Position numbers and translations under genes: made by a program | The notes under the pieces: model-generated | What the model saw: the letters and a program-made list of their open reading frames with translations, nothing else | Told to the model about the DNA's origin: nothing | Databases searched by the model: none | Shown here: one piece after another, positions 3,191-24,326 of the stretch | Layout: each line of letters begins with the position of its first letter | How positions within the stretch are numbered: the stretch's first letter is position 1 | NCBI GenBank assembly: GCA_964348775.1 | Contig: CAYGDR010000001.1 | Span: 1-34,337, forward strand | Length of the DNA: 34,337 nucleotides | Direction: 5' to 3' | DNA from: an uncultured Candidatus Saccharibacteria bacterium | GTDB lineage: Bacteria; Patescibacteriota; Minisyncoccia; Phycocordibacterales; UBA9973

Positions 3191-3226
3191 ATTTTTATTA
3201 TATATTTTCCCACATTAAACACAATC

Positions 3227-3258
3227 TAGCATTAGTGGACGATCGTTTATTAATGCTA
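3227..3258 (+). repeat. 32-nt hairpin-containing direct repeat, copy 1 (TAGCATTAGTGGACGATCGTTTATTAATGCTA)
   Basis: It matches the copy at 3836..3867 at 30 of 32 positions. The internal stem is TAGCATTA/TAATGCTA. Its last base is the A of the 3258 ATG. Confidence 0.8.
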
Positions 3259-3830
3259 TGATGATAAGTATGGGTCATGATGCGCTAAGAATGGGAAATT
3301 TAAAAAAGAAAGTTCTTTTACTTATTGGAGCTGGACTTGCCTTTGGTCTTACCCAATCCCCCAGAAAGCAGTGGTGGATACTTAAACAAATCCCCAAAGA
3401 ATGGAATAAGATTAATCGTCAAGCTCTTGAAAGAGCGGTAAATTCTCTTTACAAATCACAATTAGTGCAAGTTGAAAATAATCAGGATGGTACGACCACT
3501 TTAATTTTAAGCAAGGAGGGGAAAAGAAAAGTCTTGCAATTTAATATTAACAAAATGGAAATTAAAAAACCTGAAAAATGGGACGGAAAATGGCGAGTAG
3601 TTATGTTTGATATACCTGAGAAGATAAGAAGGTTAAGAAATTCTTTACGATTCCATTTCCAAGAGATTGGCCTTATAGAACTTCAAAAATCGGTTTTTGT
3701 TTTTCCTTACCCATGTCATAAGGAAATTGAGTTTATTTTAGAATTCTACAATGCGCGTAAATATGTGCGTTTTCTATTAGTAGACAAAATAGACAGTGGC
3801 CTTCATTTAGAGAAAAAATTTAAGTTGTAA
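3258..3830 (+). CDS. PaaX-like (winged-helix plus Cas2-fold domain) putative transcriptional regulator
   Basis: 190 aa. The WDGKWRVVMFDIPEKIRRLRNSLRFHFQEIGLIELQKSVFVFP block resembles the PaaX middle/C-terminal domain signature (WDGxW...IPE...R..LR..L...G). The start is uncertain because several Met codons lie near the N-terminus. Confidence 0.6.
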   Translation: MMISMGHDALRMGNLKKKVLLLIGAGLAFGLTQSPRKQWWILKQIPKEWNKINRQALERAVNSLYKSQLVQVENNQDGTTTLILSKEGKRKVLQFNINKMEIKKPEKWDGKWRVVMFDIPEKIRRLRNSLRFHFQEIGLIELQKSVFVFPYPCHKEIEFILEFYNARKYVRFLLVDKIDSGLHLEKKFKL

Positions 3831-15674: not shown

Positions 15675-17042
15675 TTATTGATCTTCTTTCCACTCGTCCA
15701 CAAACCAGCCACCCGACGGCCCGCCGGAGAAATTAATGTTGGCAAGACCGGATTCATAGCTTATTACCGCTCCGTTGCTTAAGTGGATTTTATATGCGGT
15801 TACTTCCTTCATAGTAGCGTTATTTGAAATTTCCACCACGCCTTCCGGCGCGTAAAGTATGGCGCTTGAAGCATTGTTGGATTGAGTTATGGCGGTAGAG
15901 CTCGTGTTGTTTCTCTGGGAGAGGACCAGCATGTAGGACCCGGCAGTTCCGGACCCTTGGGCTTCAGAATTATTGCTAAATGTGATCTCCCCAGCCGAAC
16001 TGCTCCCTCCAGTACCCGCAATTATTACTCCGCTTAGCGCGCCATAGCTTAGATCCAGCTTGATCATTGAACCGTTGCTCGCATTGATGGTCCCGGTGAC
16101 CCATACGGTGCCAGTAAGAATGAGCGTGGCATTATTTGAAAGGGTTAAGTTGCCATTGATTTTTTTGGGGCCTAAAAAAGCAGCGTCGTCGTCGAGGGTA
16201 TAACTATTGATTGTGCCACCGGCTGTAGCATCCGCCTCCCATGCATCTATTTGCTCTTCGGAGATTGGGAATTCCTCTGCCACTGGATCCTCGAAATTGC
16301 TAAGATTGGGAGTGGTTTGGGTGCCGCTTACTGTGCAGTTGGTTTTCGTATCATATGTAGCGCTTCCATTGATAGTGCAATCAGAAATACTGTCTGATAC
16401 GGCATTTCCTGAAACTGTCGCACGAAGCAGGCTGGCCGAACTAGTAGAACCATTCACTGTAATATCTTCAAGAAAATGGGCTGTAGCATTTTGATCCACT
16501 TGTATTGCGTCGATCTTGCCGGTAGCTCCAGTCGCAATTGCGGTGCCGGTGATTCGAGCACCGTTATTCCCAACAATATTTCCGTTTGAGTAGACATTGC
16601 CGTTTACTTGCGAATTATTATCCATCCGCAAACCTCCCGCTCCCACCTGTACGCCATAGCCGAAAGAAACTCCAGGAGCGGTAGAAATGGTGATTTTTGT
16701 TTTTCTTTGCAAGCTAGAAACATTCCCAAGAGAGCTGATTTCTTTTTCGCTGGCAGAAACTGCAGTGATGGTAGTGGTGGCAGAATTTGAGTTTAGGGTA
16801 ATGGTCTCGCTTGCACCTATGGTCATGCTTTTTTTTATGCGGTATACCGCATCCTCGCTTCCAGACTCGGACAAGAAATAAGACTTTTTGGAATTTAGAT
16901 TTACATTTGCCGTGCGAAACTCGCGCACAGAGGGCGAAACCAGCCCGGCGATAATGGCAAGCGAGATGAAAAGGAAGAAAATCACGGCCACCAGCATGGC
17001 TGCACCTCTAGTTGTCTTGATTTTTTGTCCTGATTTTTTCAT
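15675..17042 (-). CDS. PilX-N-like pilus-associated protein with Ser/Thr/Asn/Gly-rich beta-helix-like body (putative tip or adhesin component)
   Basis: 455 aa. N-terminal RGAAMLVAVIFFLFISLAIIAG anchor as in PilX_N domains, then repetitive NG/SG/TG-rich segments. It is the last gene of the pilin block. Confidence 0.55.
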   Translation of the reverse strand: MKKSGQKIKTTRGAAMLVAVIFFLFISLAIIAGLVSPSVREFRTANVNLNSKKSYFLSESGSEDAVYRIKKSMTIGASETITLNSNSATTTITAVSASEKEISSLGNVSSLQRKTKITISTAPGVSFGYGVQVGAGGLRMDNNSQVNGNVYSNGNIVGNNGARITGTAIATGATGKIDAIQVDQNATAHFLEDITVNGSTSSASLLRATVSGNAVSDSISDCTINGSATYDTKTNCTVSGTQTTPNLSNFEDPVAEEFPISEEQIDAWEADATAGGTINSYTLDDDAAFLGPKKINGNLTLSNNATLILTGTVWVTGTINASNGSMIKLDLSYGALSGVIIAGTGGSSSAGEITFSNNSEAQGSGTAGSYMLVLSQRNNTSSTAITQSNNASSAILYAPEGVVEISNNATMKEVTAYKIHLSNGAVISYESGLANINFSGGPSGGWFVDEWKEDQ

Positions 17043-17055
17043 TTATAATTTTCAA

Positions 17056-17574
17056 TTACTCATCATAGTCTCCGCGGAGTACGACAGTATTATAAAAATC
17101 TGTAGTGCGGCTTAGCGCATCATTATTTGATCGGATAGTCATAAAAATTTTCACCGCCTTGCCTTTTGCAGTAATTATTTCGGCAAAGGAAAGCGCGCTG
17201 ACAGAAAGATTCCCGGGATTTAAATTGCCCAAAAGAACAGAGTTTTCCCGAAATTCCACATTTGTGCCTGCAAGGATAAACTGCACAGTCTTGTTTGCTC
17301 CTCCAGCATCGGTAGAGTTCAAGTTCAAATCAGCCGCGCTTATGGAACCTATTGCATATGCCTGCCGTATCTCACGAGCCATGCGCTCCATGATATTTGC
17401 CCCTCCTAGATGATCAGACTGCACGGTGGTCTCGCGAAAGGCCGTGGTCATAGTAATCATAGAATTTATCACCGCAAGGGAAAGGAGTGCAAATAGAGAG
17501 AGATAGAACAAAAGTTCCACCATTCCATACCCAGAGTTTTTATAAGCTCTGAAATTCTTCTGGTTTTTTATCAT
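17056..17574 (-). CDS. Type IV prepilin-like minor pilin
   Basis: 172 aa. Prepilin leader ...KNSG/YGMVELLFYLSLFALLSL with Glu at +5 after the Gly cleavage site. Confidence 0.7.
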   Translation of the reverse strand: MIKNQKNFRAYKNSGYGMVELLFYLSLFALLSLAVINSMITMTTAFRETTVQSDHLGGANIMERMAREIRQAYAIGSISAADLNLNSTDAGGANKTVQFILAGTNVEFRENSVLLGNLNPGNLSVSALSFAEIITAKGKAVKIFMTIRSNNDALSRTTDFYNTVVLRGDYDE

Positions 17575-18065
17575 GATGAAAAAATATCTAAAATATAAAA
17601 CGACAAGGTTTTTGATACTGCAGTTCCAGTTTCATTCCAAGATACTGTTATCGTAACTAATTTCGTGCCAGGATCATCCGTACCGGATGCGGAAATATCG
17701 TCTGTACTATCGTCTCTATTTACATTTGCAATGCTCACAGTGCGCGTAAAACTTCCTACTGTGTTCGGCGTGGAAGAAAGGGTCCAGGTTCCTCCGAAAA
17801 ATAGAGGATAATAGAGAGACCCTGCTGTCAGATTAGAAATATTTGACCAGGCATTGTCGCGCAAGATCCGCACAGCTTCGGCCCCCTCTTCGAGGAGAAA
17901 GGAGGCCTCGGCTACATGCACTGCCTGCCTTGAAACAAAAATGGATTTTTGGGCCACGGCCATGGCAGCGAGCATGGAAACAGTGATAATGGAAGCTACT
18001 ATCACGACTTCTACCATCAAAAAACCTTTTTGGAAGTTTTTAATTTTGTAATTTCCAATTTTCAT
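17571..18065 (-). CDS. Type IV prepilin-like minor pilin
   Basis: 164 aa. Leader ...FQKG/FLMVEVVIVASIITV with Glu at +5. It overlaps the next gene by 4 nt. Confidence 0.7.
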   Translation of the reverse strand: MKIGNYKIKNFQKGFLMVEVVIVASIITVSMLAAMAVAQKSIFVSRQAVHVAEASFLLEEGAEAVRILRDNAWSNISNLTAGSLYYPLFFGGTWTLSSTPNTVGSFTRTVSIANVNRDDSTDDISASGTDDPGTKLVTITVSWNETGTAVSKTLSFYILDIFSS

Positions 18066-18066
18066 C

Positions 18067-18175
18067 CCGTTAGTAATAGGGCGCGTACGCTTATGCGATG
18101 TTATCTAATATTTTATTGCTAATAATGTGTTTCATGTCTTTGTTGGATTCTATACGTCCGCGATTACTAACGGGA
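18067..18175. repeat. 109-nt intergenic element closed by a long inverted repeat
   Basis: CCCGTTAGTAAT (18067..18078) is the perfect reverse complement of ATTACTAACGGG (18164..18175). After a 4-nt bulge the stem continues as CGCG/CGCG and ACG/CGT. The element fills most of the spacer between the pilin and the minor-pilin genes. Confidence 0.7.
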
Positions 18176-18188
18176 TTCATTAAAAATT

Positions 18189-18656
18189 TTAATTTACGCT
18201 GGCAGCTCCGGTCGAAGAGATGGTTATAGTTTTTGAGTAAGAAGAGGTGGAGATAATTATAGTGCCAGTCTTCGATGGCACTCCGTAAATCCTGCTGAAA
18301 TATAAATTGCCGGAAGTCCCGCTCACGCCTCCCAAAGTAACATTGGTGATTGACGCAGGCGCCACAATATCTATCTCTGTATTGCTGCCTGCTCCTGCGG
18401 AATATGCCGTGCCTGTAAAAATTATAACTTTATCGGATTGGAAATGCACTCCGTATTCTGAAGAATTTACCGAAGCCAGAGTGTCTCCGCGGGATTTGTT
18501 TATGGCAGAAAGCGCGTCGCTGTAAGCCGCCTTTAACACCTGTCTTTCTTTCAAGCTTGAAAACTGGGGAAGCACTACCATGACCAAAATTCCCAAAACC
18601 GCAAATGTCACGAGCACCTCAATCGGCGTAATTCCTTTGTTGTAGATACTTCTCAC
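18189..18656 (-). CDS. Type IV pilin (prepilin-type N-terminal cleavage/methylation domain)
   Basis: 155 aa, GTG start. Leader MRSIYNKG/ITPIEVLVTFAVLGILVMVV with Glu at +5. It starts 15 nt after the RT stop codon. Confidence 0.75.
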   Translation of the reverse strand: MRSIYNKGITPIEVLVTFAVLGILVMVVLPQFSSLKERQVLKAAYSDALSAINKSRGDTLASVNSSEYGVHFQSDKVIIFTGTAYSAGAGSNTEIDIVAPASITNVTLGGVSGTSGNLYFSRIYGVPSKTGTIIISTSSYSKTITISSTGAASVN

Positions 18657-18671
18657 ACGATAATCATATCA

Positions 18672-19673
18672 CTAAACCTTTTCGATCTCTATTGATTTTT
18701 TCAGTTTGAAACTGTTTCCGTGTGAAATTAGTCCAAAATATGACTGTACTGTCTCCGGCTTCGGGTTATCCCTTAGAATTTTCAACATCCTCCTCTTTGT
18801 ACTGGTTCGGAGCACTCTATACCTCGGAAAATGCACCCAGCCAAGAAAATCCACTCCGGAAGCAAAAGTTTTGATGAAAACCTTGTCTGGATGCAATTCT
18901 AGTTTCAATTTTTCTTTCAGAAACTGGGCGATATATCGCCTATATTCAGATAATTCTTTTTTGTTGGCGCTCAAGATCACGAAGTCATCTGCGTAGCGGA
19001 TATAGTACTTCACTTTCAGTTCCCTTTTTATAAATTGATCAAATTCATTCATATACACATTCACCAAAAGCTGAGAGGTTAGATTCCCGAGCGGTAAACC
19101 CTTCGACCCGGAGGCGTCGCCTCCGGGTTTTGACGAGAAACTATCAATTACCTGACCCAAAAGCCAGAGAATGTCTGTGTCAAGGATGCCCTTTGACAGG
19201 ATAGATTTTAGGATATCGTGGTCGATATTGGCGAAGAATTTCTTGATGTCGCATTTGAGAACATGGCAGGTGCGGGTGTTGTTCTTGGAAACTTTGCGGA
19301 AGAAATATCTGAAACGATCCATGGCTTTATGAGTGCCTTTGTTTATCCGGCAGGAGTATGAGTCATGGACGAACTTTTTATCAAAGTATGGGTAGAGTGC
19401 TTTATAGAGGAGATGATGTACTACTCTGTCTCTTACTGTGGCCTTATGGATGTTTCTGGGCTTGGGGTCGGAGATGTTGAAAGCTGTATAATCGCCGTGT
19501 TGGTAAGTTTTGTTTTTTAGATCGTCGAGAAGTTTGAATATATTGTCAGCCAGCTTGGCTTGAAACAAGATAATATCTTTTTTGTGTTTCTTGTCGCGCA
19601 AAAATTCTTGCCAGGCTTGGAGAAGTTTTTCTGTGGTTATGATACTATCGTAGGTATGAATAAACCTTTTCAT
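18672..19673 (-). CDS. DGR-type reverse transcriptase
   Basis: 333 aa. RT motifs include LPLGNLTSQLLVNVY (the GxxxSQ motif characteristic of DGR RTs) and IRYADDFVI (YADD). Its compact size, with no maturase, endonuclease or RNase H extension, also fits. It is adjacent to the TR. Confidence 0.9.
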   Translation of the reverse strand: MKRFIHTYDSIITTEKLLQAWQEFLRDKKHKKDIILFQAKLADNIFKLLDDLKNKTYQHGDYTAFNISDPKPRNIHKATVRDRVVHHLLYKALYPYFDKKFVHDSYSCRINKGTHKAMDRFRYFFRKVSKNNTRTCHVLKCDIKKFFANIDHDILKSILSKGILDTDILWLLGQVIDSFSSKPGGDASGSKGLPLGNLTSQLLVNVYMNEFDQFIKRELKVKYYIRYADDFVILSANKKELSEYRRYIAQFLKEKLKLELHPDKVFIKTFASGVDFLGWVHFPRYRVLRTSTKRRMLKILRDNPKPETVQSYFGLISHGNSFKLKKSIEIEKV

Positions 19674-20052
19674 AATTCTGGGACCCCCCCCCGCAGCGCC
19701 CTCGGCGCTTTTAAAAGCAAAAACGGCCTACTCTCTTTGGTTTAAAGTATACAATGACTTCCCCAAGGCGCACCGTTATATTCTGGGCGGAAAAATCGAA
19801 GATTATTTTCTCGGACTTTTAGAAAATATATTTATTTCAATATATCTTCCGCCGGAAACCAAAATACATCGCTTAATCGTAGCAATTTCCAAGCTCGATG
19901 GGATAAAGTTTTTCTTGCAAATAGCCTGGGAAAACAAGTGTGTTAGGGATATTAAATATTCGGAACTCTCCGAACAACTTCGGGAGATCGGCCGGATGCT
20001 CGGCGGCTGGAAAAAGGGGCTTGAAAAGAGTTTCGAAAAGAAAACTCCCTAG
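19660..20052 (+). CDS. Avd-like four-helix-bundle accessory protein (23S rRNA IVS protein family), opposite strand to the RT; no canonical start in frame
   Basis: The frame is open from 19660 to the TAG at 20050..20052. It translates as ...AYSLWFKVYNDFPKAHRYILGGKIEDYFLGLLENIFISIYLPPETK...KLDGIKFFLQIAWENKCVRDIKYSELSEQLREIGRMLGGWKKGLEKSFEKKTP, the pattern of CPR four-helix-bundle/Avd-family proteins as I recall it. There is no ATG, GTG or TTG before the last about 45 codons. Deleting one C from the C9 tract (19684..19692) would fuse the frame to the ATG at 19656. Confidence 0.6.
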   Translation: MNLFIILGPPPAAPSALLKAKTAYSLWFKVYNDFPKAHRYILGGKIEDYFLGLLENIFISIYLPPETKIHRLIVAISKLDGIKFFLQIAWENKCVRDIKYSELSEQLREIGRMLGGWKKGLEKSFEKKTP

Positions 20053-20066
20053 GTATGCGCTAGGGA
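20046..20066 (-). terminator. Hairpin plus U-run immediately 3' of the TR (minus strand)
   Basis: TCCCTAG-N7-CTAGGGA, followed on the minus strand by GTTTTCTTTTCG. It lies 15 nt downstream of the TR 3' end and overlaps the Avd-like stop codon on the plus strand. Confidence 0.45.
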
Positions 20067-20081
20067 GAAACATTTGAGTTT

Positions 20082-20198
20082 CGGGAGACTACATGATGCT
20101 CGTAGTCGGCGTTCCAAGTGTTGTCGTTCGAGACCGAGTTCCGGTTCACATTGAGCTGACCGTTGTCATCGAAGTTCACATTGGCAACGAAGAATTGT
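20082..20198 (-). repeat. DGR template repeat (TR)
   Basis: It aligns without gaps to 20539..20655 (offset 457 nt). In the 112-bp core, 17 of the 18 differences are positions where this copy has A on the minus strand. In the VR reading frame it carries 7 AAC and 2 AAT codons. Confidence 0.9.
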
Positions 20199-20500
20199 AC
20201 GGTGAGCCATCTACCTCACTGCCCGCCTTACCTGCAAGTTTAAAGACTGCAAAAGAGACAAAGCTGTATATTATTCGAGGCCTAAAAGCCTACCAGCGCA
20301 CCGCACCAACTTTTATGTTTTTTGTTTTAAAAAAGAATCCACTCTCCTCCAAGCCATAGCCGGGAGAATTCTCAAATTAATTTTTAAGCAATCATGGCTC
20401 GAAGTTTTTGTCCGCGAGCATTTCCAAATTGCATATTTAGTATATCAAAAAGAAAGACCCCCAGCCCAGTGACAAAGTGTCAAAGGATCCGAGGGCCCAA

Positions 20501-20515
20501 ACCCGCCTTGCGGGT
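20501..20515 (-). promoter_or_regulatory. GC-rich hairpin just downstream of the VR and target stop (candidate DGR target-recognition hairpin or terminator)
   Basis: The minus strand has ACCCGC-AAG-GCGGGT, about 23 nt past the VR 3' end and 13 nt past the stop codon. Confidence 0.45.
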
Positions 20516-20528
20516 AAAAGATAAAAAA

Positions 20529-21164
20529 CTACTGTTGCCGGGAGACTACACGATGCCCGAAGCCGGCGTACCAAGTGTAGTCGAACGAGACCGAGTCCCG
20601 GTACACGCTGAGCTGACCGCGGCCATCGAAGTACACAACGGCAACGAAGACATTGGAGAGGTCTTCGAGGACCGCTTCGCCGTCGGTGGTGCAGACGAAG
20701 AAGGTGGCGTAGCCGCCCTTGCGGAGTTTGCCTTTGTGATCGACGCAGAACTTGATGCCCTGCTCCCACTGGAGGCGCCGAGCTTCGAGCTCAGAGGCAG
20801 TCTTGCCGAGGAAATCGGCAAACTTGCCATTCACCACCAGCTTGTCCACCCGCGTCTTCGTCTTCGACGCCGGCTTGGACTTCACGCCGAGGAGCGCAGG
20901 GTCGTAGCCACCGGAGAACACCCGCTTGGCATCGTCGTCGGTAGTGGTGGCGTCGGTGGGGTCGATCTCCACACCCTCGAAGAGCGGCTCGAGGTAGACC
21001 TTCGGCTCGGGCGGAACTTCCGGCGCGGACTTCGGCTGTGTTCTCGTCAGCACCCATTCATCCCCCAAGTACTCTTGCGCGATGTCCGGCCCGCCCATCT
21101 TGTTGACAACCGCCGTCATGTCGACGCCGCCGATCAAAACCGTGTAATCGTATTTCTGAGCCAT
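20529..21164 (-). CDS. DGR target (variable) protein with C-terminal VR
   Basis: 211 aa, preceded by a strong SD (GGAGGTGAAAAATG). The C-terminal ...NVFVAVVYFDGRGQLSVYRDSVSFDYTWYAGFGHRVVSRQQ is encoded by the VR, and its ending resembles the GFR-type terminus of C-type-lectin-fold DGR targets. GC is about 60-67% in hand-counted lines. I see no obvious signal peptide. Confidence 0.85.
   Translation of the reverse strand: MAQKYDYTVLIGGVDMTAVVNKMGGPDIAQEYLGDEWVLTRTQPKSAPEVPPEPKVYLEPLFEGVEIDPTDATTTDDDAKRVFSGGYDPALLGVKSKPASKTKTRVDKLVVNGKFADFLGKTASELEARRLQWEQGIKFCVDHKGKLRKGGYATFFVCTTDGEAVLEDLSNVFVAVVYFDGRGQLSVYRDSVSFDYTWYAGFGHRVVSRQQ
20539..20655 (-). repeat. DGR variable repeat (VR)
   Basis: This is the counterpart of the TR. 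TR AAC/AAT codons appear here as GTT, TAC, CGC, AGC, TAC, GAC, TTC, TAC and TAC. The VR ends 7 nt before the target stop codon. Confidence 0.9.
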
Positions 21165-21259
21165 TTTTCACCTCCGACTTATAGTCGGCACTTTTCGCAT
21201 ACCATATAGGCAGCGCGCCGCGAAATGCGGCATTTCAAAGACCACGAGTATTCTTATAT

Positions 21260-21288
21260 ATTATACACTTTCTAAGCAAAAAAGTCAA
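21260..21288 (-). promoter_or_regulatory. Near-consensus sigma70 promoter for the DGR target gene, inside the 3' end of pilC
   Basis: Minus strand: TTGACT (21283..21288), a 17-nt spacer, then TATAAT (21260..21265). An approximately 88-nt leader follows, containing small GC hairpins and the SD. Confidence 0.65.
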
Positions 21289-22513
21289 TAAATTGCAAGT
21301 AGCCGATGTTGCCAAGTATCGAATAAAGCGGAGAGATCATGGATATCGCAAAAAAGCCTACTCCTCCGCCAATCACCACCATAAGGAGAGGCTCAATGAT
21401 GGTGGAGAGGTTTTTGGTTTTATTTTCAATCTCTTCCTCGTAAAATATAGCGATGTCTAGAAGCATATCGGAAAGCTTGCCGGTTTCTTCGCCCACCTGG
21501 ATCATTTCTGACATCATCACCGGATAAAGTTTCTGGTTTTCCTGAAAAGTCTGATAGAAAGGCGAGCCTTTTTCTATTGCAGTCTTTGTGGCTTCTAGCA
21601 CTCGGCGATAATATATATTCTGCACCACATCTTCGGTGATCTCGACCGCTCTAGTAATAGAAACCCCCGAGAGAAGAAGCGAAGATAGCGTCCTTGCCGT
21701 ACGAGCGGTATTTAATTCCCTGTCCAAAGTGCCGATAACAGGCATCCGGATAACCAGGTAGTCTATGTACTTGGAAAGAATTTTAGATCGGATAAGCGCA
21801 AAGATCGCGACAAAAGCGGAAATAACTATTAGAAATGTAAGGATTAGGTGATTGGAAAAGAAATTGCCCATCCAAATGAGCACCCTGGTCGAAGTCGGAA
21901 GCACTACCCCAAGCTCTTTGAATGTGCCGGCAAGCGTGGGCACAACAAAAGCAAACATGAGTATGCCGATAATGAGCATGGCAGACATTATCACTCCTGG
22001 GTAAATCAGGGCTCCGCCTATTTTTTTGTTTAGGGCATGGGCTTTTTCTAAATTCGCGCCGATTTCGCCAAGGGCGTTCGACAAATTTCCTGACTCCTCT
22101 CCGGCGCGGGTCATGGAAACAAAAAGGCTGGAAAAGACATCAGGGAATTTTGCCAGGCCGGAAGAAAGCGTGCCTCCTTGGTTTATGTCATTTCCCAAGG
22201 AAATTAGAATTTTTTTGAAAGCCTGGTTCTTGGTCTGCTTTTCAAGCACCGAAAGCGCTCGCGCGAGAGAAAGGCCGGCGCGGAGCATTCCGCCCAAGTT
22301 CTTTGTAAAAATTATCTGCTCGGCTGCACTTACCCTGCCGAAAAACCTTTCAAAAAAAGCTGTAAAGTTGAAACCCTCCGTCTTTTCGTTCACGGATATC
22401 GGAGTATTGCCTTTGGCCCTTAAGTCTTTAGAAAGGGCAAATCGGTCCGGGGCCTCGAGCACTCCTTCTATCACTTCCCCTGTCTTTGTTTTTGCTTTAT
22501 ATTTGAATAGCAT
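21272..22513 (-). CDS. pilC: Type IV pilus assembly platform protein PilC (GspF family)
   Basis: 413 aa. Two GspF-type repeats with three TM segments, and typical LSxGxxLxxAL blocks. Confidence 0.9.
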   Translation of the reverse strand: MLFKYKAKTKTGEVIEGVLEAPDRFALSKDLRAKGNTPISVNEKTEGFNFTAFFERFFGRVSAAEQIIFTKNLGGMLRAGLSLARALSVLEKQTKNQAFKKILISLGNDINQGGTLSSGLAKFPDVFSSLFVSMTRAGEESGNLSNALGEIGANLEKAHALNKKIGGALIYPGVIMSAMLIIGILMFAFVVPTLAGTFKELGVVLPTSTRVLIWMGNFFSNHLILTFLIVISAFVAIFALIRSKILSKYIDYLVIRMPVIGTLDRELNTARTARTLSSLLLSGVSITRAVEITEDVVQNIYYRRVLEATKTAIEKGSPFYQTFQENQKLYPVMMSEMIQVGEETGKLSDMLLDIAIFYEEEIENKTKNLSTIIEPLLMVVIGGGVGFFAISMISPLYSILGNIGYLQFIDFFA

Positions 22514-22580
22514 CCCGGTACTAAAATTTTAAACTTTTATTTATAGTGGTCATTTTTTGTAATCAAAAATTTAGTACGGG
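22514..22580. repeat. Imperfect inverted repeat spanning the pilB-pilC spacer
   Basis: CCCGGTACTAAAATTTT (22514..22530) pairs with AAAAATTTAGTACGGG (22565..22580), with two single-base bulges. The element begins at the base after the pilC start codon position and ends 6 nt before the pilB stop. Confidence 0.6.
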
Positions 22581-22586
22581 ACAGAT

Positions 22587-24326
22587 CTATTCAGAAACCA
22601 CCCTAAATACTTCCTCCAAGGTGGTCACGCCCAAAACCGCCTGAAATACTCCGTCTTCGATCATAGTCATCATGCCTTCTTTCTTTGCCTGCGCCTCTAT
22701 TTCATCCTGGGAGCTGCCGTGAACCACCATTTCCTTTATGGCCGCGCTCATTTTAAGCACTTCGTGTATGCCTGTACGGCCGGAGTAGCCGTCTTCGGAC
22801 TCAGGGCTTGGTTTTGCTTTTTGGAAAGGAACTTTGTCCCAGGAAATGCTTGGGTCGATAATATTTTCTTTTTTCAGCATCTCGAGCGTGCGATCGAGGT
22901 CTACAATCTTTGCTAGGTTTTTAACTTCGTCGTCTGACAGAAAATATTCTTCTTTGCTCGGGCTTAATTTTCTGACCAACCTTTGTGCCATGATTATTTT
23001 TACAGTGGAAATGATAAGAAAAGGCTCCACTCCCATGTCGATAAGCCTAGGGATGGCTCCGGCGGCAGAATTGGTGTGGATAGTAGACAGAACCAAATGG
23101 CCCGTAAGCGAAGCGTTGATAGCAAGGCCCGCAGTCTCCACATCTCTTATCTCGCCCACCATCACAATATCCGGGTCTTGCCGGAGAAGAGACCGCAAGC
23201 CATTTGCAAATGTGAGCCCGATCTCCGGCTTTACTTGGGTCTGGTTCACTCTTGGCATCTGGTATTCAATAGGGTCTTCTACTGTCGAGATATTTACCTC
23301 CGGCTTATTCAAAATATCAAGCATTGTGTAAAGCGTAGTGGTCTTCCCAGAGCCTGTGGGCCCGGTTGCCAGCACCATGCCCGTTTTTAATTTGAGCGAT
23401 GCATATATCCTCTCCAAACTCTCTCCATGAAAGCCTAAAGTTTCAAGAGTATAGCCATGAGTGTTTTCTTTCAAAATTCTGATCACCGTCTTTTCGCCGA
23501 AAAAAGTGGGCAGAGTAGAAACACGGAAAGAAATCTTTTCGCCGTTCTGGTCTATCTTAAATCTGCCGTCTTGCGGAAGGCGCTTTTCGTCAAGCTTTAA
23601 GTTCGAAAGGACTTTGATGCGGGCAGTAATCCCGGATCCTGCGCTTTTATCAAGAACCATTGCATCATGCAGTATGCCATCAATGCGGTATCTCACTGTC
23701 AGATCTTTTTCGCCTGGTTCAATGTGTATATCAGAAGCATTTTGGAGTATCGCGTGAAAAATGAGCGAGTCCACTATCTTTACCACCGGCAAGTCTTCTG
23801 CCAGCTCTTTGTCAGACTTATCGCTGTCTCCCTTGCTAGAATCCCGCATCGAGTCGGATTCTTTTTGGATGATGTTGCCGAATTCTGCCTGGAGACTCTT
23901 TCGATACTGCACCAGCATGGACCGGATGGAAGCTTCGTCCGTCAGGCGAGGCAGAATTTTCATGCCGGAGCGCTTCTTTATAAAGTCTATAACCGGAAGA
24001 TCTTCCACATCAAGCATGGCCACTTCCAAGCCCAGCTGGCTTTTTTTGTAGGCAATAATATTGTAGTTTCTGGCAATCGGCTCGGGCACCAGAGAGAGCA
24101 CGGAAAAATCTATTTTTTGATTTTCGAGACTGACAAAAGGAATGCCTAGCGCAAAAGCCTCCATCCTCCGAAGGTCGGATTCAGAAATACTCCCGGAAGA
24201 CAAGAGAATGTCTCCGACTTTTTGATTTTTCTCTTCCGCTTTTTTCTTGGCGTCTTCAAACTGCTCCCTGGTTACAAGTTTTGAATCTAAAATAATCTTT
24301 TGGAACTCTGTCTCATCTATCTGCAT
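22587..24326 (-). CDS. pilB: Type IV pilus assembly ATPase PilB (GspE family)
   Basis: 579 aa. T2SSE N-terminal domain, Walker A GPTGSGKTTT, Asp box, Walker B and His box (LVLSTIHTN). Confidence 0.93.
   Translation of the reverse strand: MQIDETEFQKIILDSKLVTREQFEDAKKKAEEKNQKVGDILLSSGSISESDLRRMEAFALGIPFVSLENQKIDFSVLSLVPEPIARNYNIIAYKKSQLGLEVAMLDVEDLPVIDFIKKRSGMKILPRLTDEASIRSMLVQYRKSLQAEFGNIIQKESDSMRDSSKGDSDKSDKELAEDLPVVKIVDSLIFHAILQNASDIHIEPGEKDLTVRYRIDGILHDAMVLDKSAGSGITARIKVLSNLKLDEKRLPQDGRFKIDQNGEKISFRVSTLPTFFGEKTVIRILKENTHGYTLETLGFHGESLERIYASLKLKTGMVLATGPTGSGKTTTLYTMLDILNKPEVNISTVEDPIEYQMPRVNQTQVKPEIGLTFANGLRSLLRQDPDIVMVGEIRDVETAGLAINASLTGHLVLSTIHTNSAAGAIPRLIDMGVEPFLIISTVKIIMAQRLVRKLSPSKEEYFLSDDEVKNLAKIVDLDRTLEMLKKENIIDPSISWDKVPFQKAKPSPESEDGYSGRTGIHEVLKMSAAIKEMVVHGSSQDEIEAQAKKEGMMTMIEDGVFQAVLGVTTLEEVFRVVSE

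Follow-up and report, generated by a model that had tools for sequence, protein, structure and literature searches.

Does a pair of similar DNA segments beside a reverse transcriptase (RT) gene, in a 34,337-nt stretch of a contig from an uncultured Candidatus Saccharibacteria bacterium (hereafter, the window), belong to an intact diversity-generating retroelement (DGR), and what occupies the space between the two segments? The ultra-small CPR bacteria carry more DGRs than any other organisms and are also the least well understood. An earlier note on this DNA, made from the sequence alone, had read the locus as a complete DGR, and our analysis supports that reading: the RT is nearest to that of the Bordetella phage DGR (bRT), the differences between template repeat (TR) and variable repeat (VR) are adenine-specific, an Avd homologue is present, and dozens of relatives share the layout. 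Very probably, the locus is a chromosomal DGR of a CPR/Patescibacteria lineage, with an RT of clade 2 (Roux et al.) and architecture B3 (Wu et al.). Judged from its sequence, the element is apparently intact, comprising the RT, a reversed avd gene, TR and VR, a promoter followed by a ~230-nt leader, and a 3' hairpin with a U-tract.

A repeat search of the window returned one direct repeat (20082-20193 and 20539-20650; 112 nt, ungapped, spacing 457, 84% identity), and neither a further copy nor a second VR was found within the window. After alignment, we assign the first copy as the TR (20082..20193, minus strand, 29 adenines) and the second as the VR (20539..20650, minus strand), which spans codons ~172-209 and, with its ~38 codons, forms the C-terminus of a 211-aa target ORF, as had been claimed. 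The earlier note had the repeat ungapped at an offset of 457, which holds, and about 117 bp long, which does not: at positions 20194-20198, beyond the repeat, four of five bases differ without specificity for adenine. Our recount of the 112-nt core reproduced its tally of 18 mismatches, 17 of which hit minus-strand adenines of the template, that is, T on the plus strand. The enrichment is strong (P = 1.5e-11, hypergeometric, for T at 17 or more of the 18 mismatches, given 29 T among 112 plus-strand bases). Opposite these 17 sites, the plus strand of the VR carries A in 8 cases, C in 7 and G in 2, and the sole exception is the A/G difference noted before, which we locate at 20150/20607. At non-adenine positions TR and VR are identical in 82 of 83 cases, as expected given recent homing.

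The pattern is also consistent with the coding frame of the target. In the frame of the 211-aa ORF, each of the 17 adenine-site changes affects the first or second base of a codon; the translations quoted in the earlier note are reproduced, and the TR contains the seven AAC and two AAT codons given there. By codon analysis, adenine changes in the VR cannot reach a stop codon; the potential diversity computed from the TR codons is ~4e16 protein variants, with stop codons never created. TR and VR have a GC-rich 11-nt end in common, beyond which their flanks diverge; this is the candidate IMH, an element without a functional definition in this lineage. A short GC hairpin of 5 bp (CCCGC-AAG-GCGGG, 20502..20514, minus strand), read from the sequence, follows the VR at a distance of 24 nt and the target stop codon at 15 nt; relatives have hairpins there too, and it may serve as a post-IMH inverted repeat, a terminator or both.

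The RT (18672..19673, minus strand, 333 aa) matches Pfam RVT_1 and carries the motifs LGNLTSQ and YADD, in line with the GNLTSQ and YADD reported earlier. We took a DGR RT to be one that is closest to bRT, with motif 4 of the form [LIV]GxxxSQ and a YxDD motif. The best match in the PDB is bRT itself (8ub7_A, 131 bits, E 5e-37), whose IGSLTSQ aligns with LGNLTSQ; the best group II match in the PDB (7uim_D) scores 78 bits. Among NCBIfam models the top match is the group II intron RT/maturase TIGR04416, at 155 bits and below its cut-off of 300, and no DGR-RT model is among the NCBIfam matches. By its closeness to bRT and its motifs, the sequence is best assigned to the DGR clade. No separate RT promoter was found at the locus.

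The RT has at least 585 relatives, and the 80 listed are nearly all labelled Patescibacteria or unclassified; the RTs of these 80 retrieved loci are 59-75% identical to the one here. The layout of target with VR, gap, TR, reversed avd and RT is common to more than 60 related loci, again nearly all Patescibacteria-labelled or unclassified. In 62 of them, with the same order and spacing, 1044 of 1097 TR/VR mismatches lie at adenines. Gene order and relatives alike fit the CPR-type architecture B3, 'TR-(avd)-RT', which is typical of CPR DGRs (Wu et al. 2018, PMC5758913), and CPR DGRs form a clade of their own with domain-less targets (Roux et al. 2021, PMC8144416). As its layout is that of the published B3 architecture, the element adds to a known kind of DGR; as a DGR it is one more example among thousands and carries little weight alone. 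We rejected a functional link to type IV pili, as pilus genes lie near only ~7 of the 80 related loci, in differing arrangements.

On the plus strand, opposite RT, TR and VR, lies avd (19675..20052), which exceeds the cut-off of Pfam bAvd (48.2 bits versus 40) and falls under that of NCBIfam DivGenRetAVD (57.5 bits, cut-off 80). Only profile libraries recognise the protein; a phmmer search against PDB sequences gave no meaningful match. The gene is absent from the earlier note, where it was overlooked because it is on the opposite strand. Its reversed position is kept in every relative with enough flank. The start of the gene is unusual: the candidates are ATA (19672), ATT (19675) and CTG (19678), with no in-frame ATG, GTG or TTG before 19915, and the 5' end holds a C9 homopolymer, which reads as G9 on the RT strand, and then a hairpin, GCGCC-CTC-GGCGC (19684..19708). 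A homopolymer run of 8-13 nt occurs at the avd start in 20 of 22 loci inspected, an in-frame ATN adjoins the start codon of the RT in some seven of these loci, and in most loci an inverted repeat flanks the run, its arm sequences varying by locus (judged by eye in some six loci). An upstream ATG (19656) restored by deletion of one C was also considered; this is possible in the window and is not general across relatives. Against avd being a pseudogene, an idea we rejected, stand the lineage-wide occurrence of the start anomaly and the conservation of the ORFs, which are intact and 81-87% identical among the closest relatives. The conserved arrangement of homopolymer run, hairpin and non-canonical start may regulate Avd dosage.

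The gap between VR and TR measures 345 nt and holds a conserved promoter and a structured RNA leader with two domains. The promoter, on the minus strand at 20439..20447, is a putative extended -10 element (TGATATACT) for the TR-containing RNA. It is conserved across loci, with alignment columns that are invariant or nearly so: a TAnnnT hexamer stands 0-2 nt before the start of the leader model in 38 of 43 loci, accompanied by TGn in 21. Just upstream of the leader there are also repeated CTTTGA-like motifs and inverted repeats.

For the leader we relied on covariation, because the single-sequence minimum free energy of the ~400-nt RNA is uninformative (z = -1.0). Domain 1 (20336..20438, minus strand) consists of two hairpin modules; its covariance model, R2, scores 98.6 bits in the window and is found at the same relative position in 46 of 74 sources, namely the window and 45 of the 73 related loci, with 91% of cells paired, against 42-48% when the structure is slid along the alignment, and a covariation score of 0.87 against at most 0.14. 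Domain 2 (20189..20314, minus strand; model R1, 107.5 bits in the window) is more widespread: it occurs in the window and in 71 of the 73 related loci, making 72 of 74 sources. Here a 12-bp long-range helix, in which 20306-20295 pairs with 20208-20197, has a hairpin and a stem inside it. The share of paired cells is 95.6% and drops to 31-51% on sliding; compensatory changes occur in 22 of 26 pairs and point to selection at the RNA level. The helix ends ~3 nt short of the TR, and in related loci TR homology begins a median of 3 nt past it. In 72 of 74 sources the leader shares the strand of TR and RT and stands immediately next to the TR. Rfam 15 gave no match across the whole window at the gathering threshold, and none in 19600-20700 at E <= 1; the window contains no tRNAs. 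We rejected a small protein encoded in the gap, since close relatives do not keep the reading frames intact even though their nucleotides are 73-86% identical.

On the other side of the TR, a terminator scan together with alignment and covariation in 13 loci identified a conserved segment (20035..20081, minus strand) made up of GAAAC..GUUUCUCC, an 8-bp hairpin (20067-20045) and UUUUCUUUUC. This segment, which runs antisense across the avd stop codon, resembles a terminator and is a possible binding site for Avd. We found no description of the structured 5' leader, its promoter, the terminator-like hairpin after the TR or the C-run at the avd start in the literature covered, which does not include Paul et al. 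2017, reportedly the first survey of CPR/Patescibacteria DGRs.

How else might these observations be explained? The missing canonical start codon and the homopolymer run would suit a decayed, inactive relic, whose avd cannot be translated (no start codon, a slippery C9) and whose TR/VR differences are fossil. So would the outcome of a pattern scan of JGI metagenome contigs with Ns at the adenine sites, which returned 0 matches to alternative VR alleles. We consider a relic unlikely, given that the odd start is a lineage-wide trait, that avd ORFs stay intact in the closest relatives, that non-adenine positions of TR and VR agree almost without exception, and that the RT, the target ORF and every RNA element are undamaged and score highly. 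Within the sample, another contig carries an identical VR. An ordinary segmental duplication or gene-conversion tract that happens to lie beside an unrelated RT (of a group II intron, a retron or a defence system) gains something from the NCBIfam result, with its group II model on top. It is effectively refuted by the adenine bias and the independent recurrence of this bias in 62 loci, by the wide margin with which bRT wins the structural-database comparison, by the adjacent Avd, and by the lack of any intron or retron RNA match in Rfam even at E <= 1.

A separate matter is whether the leader belongs to the DGR RNA at all. It might be an independent small RNA, or regulatory DNA such as an operator or the UTR of the target gene; the ends given for the leader are predicted, its single-sequence fold is unremarkable, and it is closely preceded by the repeated CTTTGA-like motifs and the inverted repeats. 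We find such an arrangement quite unlikely in view of the constant strand and the abutment on the TR in 72 of 74 sources, the coincidence of the terminal helix with the 5' boundary of the TR, the conserved -10 box ahead of the leader and the compensatory changes within it.

With the leader as part of the DGR RNA, the following scheme can be proposed. An RNA of ~400 nt, running on the minus strand from about 20432 to about 20036, would be transcribed from its own extended -10 promoter, fold into the two leader domains and bind RT-Avd. The RT would then copy the TR by cis-primed reverse transcription, misincorporating opposite adenines, and cDNA synthesis would stop at the 12-bp helix abutting the 5' end of the TR. 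The cDNA would replace the VR, guided by the shared GC-rich 3' end (GTAGTCTCCCG). As to how the IMH functions, where priming occurs, where the RNA begins and ends and whether the helix acts as a stop, this scheme draws on the sequence and on analogy with BPP-1 (bioRxiv 10.1101/2023.10.23.563531).

The product that would be diversified is a 211-aa protein (20529..21164, minus strand) whose ORF comprises a small N-terminal module, a Pro-rich linker and a ~160-aa C-terminal domain with the VR. A consensus scan placed a candidate sigma-70-like promoter, TTGACT-17-TATAAT (11 of 12 matches), upstream of the gene at 21260..21288 on the minus strand. The target has no Pfam or NCBIfam match, and a profile of its family built from 132 members has no Pfam or PDB sequence match; the family counts 1190 cluster representatives. 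An AF2 model from the 132-sequence alignment reached a pLDDT of 92.5 and replaced an earlier run with 3 sequences (pLDDT 54), which was discarded. To our knowledge, all solved DGR variable proteins have a C-type lectin fold. Foldseek found no match for the model in the PDB (best E 0.57, query-normalised TM at most 0.21) or in BFVD (best E 0.2), and so no C-type lectin or FGE-like fold of the Mtd, TvpA or AvpA type, in a comparison that can miss very divergent or permuted folds. We found no description of the predicted fold in the literature covered. In the AF2 model, the variable residues occupy alternate positions of two beta-strands and the following loop in the C-terminal domain, a surface that is presumably the ligand-binding face. 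DGR-driven loss of adenine as the cause of the high GC content of target genes is a reading we rejected because A (0.27) exceeds T (0.22) outside the VR.

More tentatively, and with confidence that falls somewhat short of even, we propose that this CPR DGR lineage uses an autonomous ~400-nt RNA with its own promoter and terminator, in which a ~230-nt two-domain 5' leader would act as a protein-binding scaffold and constitute a new RNA family absent from Rfam, with a stop helix formed wholly from upstream sequence, and that it diversifies a scaffold other than the C-type lectin. If true, the target scaffold would represent one more structural way of accommodating massive variation; a family of ~1200 clusters with a confidently predicted fold and no solved match already questions the assumption that all VRs reside in C-type lectins. 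An RNA supported by covariation, with promoter, two leader domains, stop helix, TR and terminator, would also be usable for reconstitution and cryo-EM of a non-phage DGR RNP.

Compared with known systems, the RT shares homologous fingers and palm with group II intron RTs and maturases (78 bits to 7uim_D, 155 bits to TIGR04416), but it stays below the cut-off of 300, lacks intron RNA domains and a maturase/endonuclease extension, and has SQ where those enzymes have SP. The RNA motifs RT-1 to RT-19, which are associated with RTs and include the BPP-1 spacer RNA as RT-10 (Weinberg et al. 2017, PMC5737381), are likewise structured RNAs beside RT genes, at least one of them from a DGR. The leader here differs in lying 5' of the TR with avd between it and the RT, and 19600-20700 is unmatched (E <= 1) in Rfam 15, which may or may not include RT-1 to RT-19.

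The BPP-1 DGR (mtd-avd-TR-brt; PDB 8ub7 series) resembles the present element in its homologous RT (131 bits) with the LGxxxSQ motif, an Avd homologue, A-to-N mutagenesis, AAY codons in the TR and a VR at the 3' end of the target. In both, a helix abuts the 5' end of the TR where the cDNA would stop, and a stem-loop closely follows the TR on its 3' side. However, BPP-1 is phage-borne and this element cellular; its structured RNA occupies a 140-nt 3' spacer, whereas here it lies mostly in the ~230 nt 5' of the TR; the strand beside the TR 5' end pairs downstream in BPP-1 and with an upstream partner here; and its target is Mtd, whereas ours does not resemble Mtd and shows no C-type lectin fold that we could detect. 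The closest counterparts are the B3 DGRs of CPR/Patescibacteria, which have the same gene order, reversed avd and chromosomal location, and likewise a small target without a recognisable domain and with a C-terminal VR; from these the element shows no essential difference.

The diversity-generating retroelement (DGR) reported in the earlier note is both real and complete, with an adenine-specific pair of template repeat (TR) and variable repeat (VR), a reverse transcriptase (RT) nearest to that of Bordetella phage BPP-1 (bRT), an Avd homologue, and relatives with the same layout. A repeat search of the region finds one long direct repeat, which joins the TR (20082-20193) to the VR (20539-20650), both on the minus strand, over 112 nt at a spacing of 457 and with 84% identity. 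The note's description of two gapless segments at that offset with 18 differences, 17 of them adenine-specific, agrees with our base-by-base recount: at 17 of 18 mismatches the base in the TR copy is a plus-strand T, hence a minus-strand A, and the sole exception is an A/G difference at 20150/20607. With 29 T per 112 core bases, 17 or more of 18 mismatches would fall on T with a hypergeometric probability of 1.5e-11. The quoted translations are correct, as is the count of seven AAC and two AAT codons in the TR read in the target frame. The proposed length of ~117 bp gives way to the 112-nt core, since four of the five extra bases (20194-20198) differ and thus lie outside the repeat. All 17 A-site substitutions fall at codon position 1 or 2 of the 211-aa target ORF (20529-21164, minus strand). 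The TR could encode ~4e16 protein variants, with stop codons unreachable; no third repeat copy was found within the window. Because TR and VR are the same at 82 of 83 non-adenine positions, the sequences indicate that the DGR is very probably functional or was so recently.

The RT (18672-19673, minus strand; 333 aa, RVT_1) was compared with all PDB sequences, and by far its top match is 8ub7_A, the 328-aa Bordetella phage DGR RT (131 bits, E 5e-37, nearly full length). Its LGNLTSQ aligns opposite IGSLTSQ of bRT. The best group II intron RT in the PDB reaches 78 bits, and retron and defence RTs score lower still. No DGR-RT model is among the NCBIfam matches, the top one of which, a group II RT/maturase, falls far below its cut-off (155 bits versus 300). 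Scanning GTDB representative genomes with the RT gave at least 585 relatives; the 80 kept are 59-75% identical, and nearly all of them carry a Patescibacteria/CPR label (Nomurabacteria, Paceibacterota and others) or are unclassified.

Screened by self-BLAST, 62 related loci show a TR/VR pair with adenine bias, and the order is always the same: target with C-terminal VR, gap, TR, reversed avd, RT. Target ORFs are mostly ~200-250 aa, the gap spans 257-416 nt and the TR mostly 110-140 nt; pooled, 1044 of 1097 TR/VR mismatches fall on TR adenines. Wherever a related locus extends far enough upstream, the RT is directly preceded by an Avd homologue on the opposite strand. The layout of the window and its relatives is architecture B3, 'TR-(avd)-RT', which makes up 90% of the CPR set of Wu et al. 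(PMC5758913); in Roux et al., DGR clade 2 is restricted to CPR and its targets have no recognisable domains (PMC8144416). CPR DGRs of this type were described in 2017-2018 and the element is an ordinary one among them; there is therefore little new in the DGR itself. Some relatives are B3 variants, with two VRs per TR or a VR across the RT or on the other strand; locus L066 has VRs at 787-902 and 3213-3326, and the VR of L077 is inverted at 2235-2095.

The window is chromosomal, and its genes include ArgRS, SHMT, ComEC, RecJ, PGK, TIM, NusA and type IV pilus genes. The cassette lies within the pilus cluster (15675-24326), where the order is pilB, pilC, DGR and four ORFs, which have no Pfam match and which we read as pilin-like from their N-terminal sequences. 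The RT stop codon precedes the first of these ORFs by only 15 nt, so that they may be co-transcribed with the RT. Among 80 related loci, only ~7 have pilus genes nearby. In a second assembly from the same sample (ENA ERZ27247830, contigs k141_1131495 and k141_349813; our L001 and L002) the locus is split inside avd at about residue 43, and both contigs are identical to the window, VR included.

The third gene of the element, avd, was missed in the earlier note. It has no in-frame ATG, GTG or TTG before 19915, and a start there would take ~80 residues off the N-terminus, about two-thirds of Avd; many loci, the window included, lack a canonical avd start codon. Its 5' end carries a C-run with an inverted repeat (19684-19708; C9 on the avd strand, a G-run on the RT strand). 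A C8-C13 run occurs there in 20 of 22 relatives inspected (L005-L020 and others), 8-70 nt upstream of the RT ATG and in most of them in frame as PPP, and in most loci a short inverted repeat adjoins it, with arm sequences that vary by locus. In about seven loci the RT start codon, read in reverse complement, directly adjoins an in-frame ATN codon (ATT or ATA in the window, ATG in some relatives). Because the ORFs are intact and share 81-87% identity among the closest relatives, we regard avd as probably expressed, through an unusual start.

The target protein matches no Pfam or NCBIfam model. A word-indexed search returned only two full-length homologues; an exhaustive profile search raised this to 1190 cluster representatives at E <= 1e-3 and to 600 at the stricter E <= 1e-10. 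Most are 160-250 aa long; no Pfam family recurs among them, and the profile matches no PDB sequence. AlphaFold2, given 132 family sequences, predicts (pLDDT 92.5) a small N-terminal module, a Pro-rich linker and an alpha/beta domain of ~160 aa. In this model the VR accounts for strands 172-179 and 185-191, a loop and strand 205-209, and adenine-bearing codons occupy alternate strand positions (176, 178; 186, 188, 190) and loops 180-184 and 194-205, a predicted pattern consistent with one exposed face. To our knowledge, all solved DGR variable proteins have a C-type lectin fold. Roux et al. guessed that uncharacterised CPR VR domains are new variants of it (PMC8144416). Our model does not support that guess: Foldseek gave no significant match in PDB (best E 0.57, query-normalised TM <= 0.21) or BFVD (best E 0.2), negatives that are not proof.

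The same target family occurs in only 13 of 62 loci; grouped by eye, the other VR-bearing C-termini fall into at least five more sequence types that share the RT/avd/RNA chassis. Target GC exceeds that of the locus's own RT in 55 of 55 loci (means outside the VR, 0.50 vs 0.36, and for GC3 0.58 vs 0.38; in the window, 0.61 vs 0.41), and the excess is not adenine-specific. Target residues 1-40 (21042-21164; YDYTVLIGGVD..NKMGGP..AQ.YL.DE) recur at 61-70% identity in two proteins, P0004 and P0005, with unrelated C-termini, which suggests a shuffled N-terminal module. In another protein, P0017 (3408 aa), 22 separate stretches match positions ~132-202 of the target-domain profile; it appears to be a giant protein of repeated VR-bearing domain halves.

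The 345-nt gap between VR and TR is 73-86% identical in nucleotides to loci whose target proteins are only 30-48% identical, and no conserved reading frame was found in it among the compared loci. RNAalifold on 13 loci predicts 52 pairs, 36 with compensatory changes. A covariance model of the TR-proximal domain 2, R1 (20189-20314), matches the window and 71 of the 73 related loci (72 of 74 sources in all), each time on the RT strand and directly 5' of the TR, and gives one further weak match in 812 kb searched on both strands. That match, the only one off the expected position (L062:12801-12944, minus; 26.7 bits, E 0.006), may be a second, degenerate DGR RNA. The model of domain 1, R2 (20336-20438), matches in the same relative position in 46 sources, namely the window and 45 of the 73 related loci. 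Pairing figures are inflated because the alignments were fitted to covariance models: for R1, 95.6% of cells pair versus 31-51% with partners slid, with double changes in 22 of 26 pairs and a covariation score of 0.68 versus 0.09-0.15; for R2, 91% versus 42-48% and 0.87 versus at most 0.14. The variety of pair types per position (e.g. CG 34, UA 26, GC 5, UG 4) is hard to explain without RNA structure, and on this comparative evidence the non-coding gap is a conserved structured RNA, hereafter the leader. Rfam 15 gave zero matches across 19600-20700, even at E <= 1. Both hairpin modules of domain 1 carry a similar conserved apical sequence, GG..YUAYGGCUU (alignment A8), and this likeness suggests a duplicated protein-binding module.

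In 38 of 43 loci a TAnnnT hexamer (TATACT, TATAAT or TACAAT) precedes the R2 start by 0-2 nt, and 21 also have TGn; the window sequence, TGATATACT (20439-20447, minus), is a putative -10 promoter element of the TR-containing RNA. Upstream of this promoter, within 20455-20490, is an inverted repeat, TGACA-N3-TGTCA (20470-20482). Relatives share two to four CTT(T/A)GA-like repeats at ~8-10 nt spacing (alignment A4, columns ~105-150), often forming an inverted repeat; this region may be an operator or target-site element. At the other end, the 12-bp outer helix of R1 (20306-20295 with 20208-20197, minus) ends 3 nt ahead of the TR, and in 62 loci the median start of TR/VR homology is 3 nt past it (-3 to +10 nt in 51). 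On the minus strand 3' of the TR follow a conserved GAAAC..GUUUCUCC, an 8-bp hairpin and UUUUCUUUUC; hairpin and UUUUCUUUUC are terminator-like in a terminator scan, and the hairpin segment overlaps the avd stop codon in antisense.

What merits follow-up is lineage-wide: in the RNA, the leader, its promoter and terminator, and the TR boundary set by a helix; in the genes, the unclassified fold of the target, the high GC of target genes and the region where avd starts. In BPP-1, most of the structured RNA is found in the 140-nt spacer on the 3' side of the TR; this spacer holds a stem-loop to which Avd binds, the priming adenosine, a thumb ring and a stem bound by bRT (bioRxiv 10.1101/2023.10.23.563531). 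Here, by contrast, the TR is followed by a short stretch and then antisense avd; by analogy, the leader would be the source of the scaffold functions, and the post-TR hairpin may serve Avd binding and/or transcription termination. The same paper describes a 'cPRT Stop' duplex in BPP-1, in which the strand just upstream of the TR pairs with a spacer strand downstream, whereas the covarying partner here lies ~85 nt further upstream; the R1 helix abutting the TR could likewise act as a reverse-transcription stop. That paper's cross-taxon survey, CPR DGRs included, folded only 40 nt upstream and 100 nt downstream of the TR, and the leader was therefore out of its sight.
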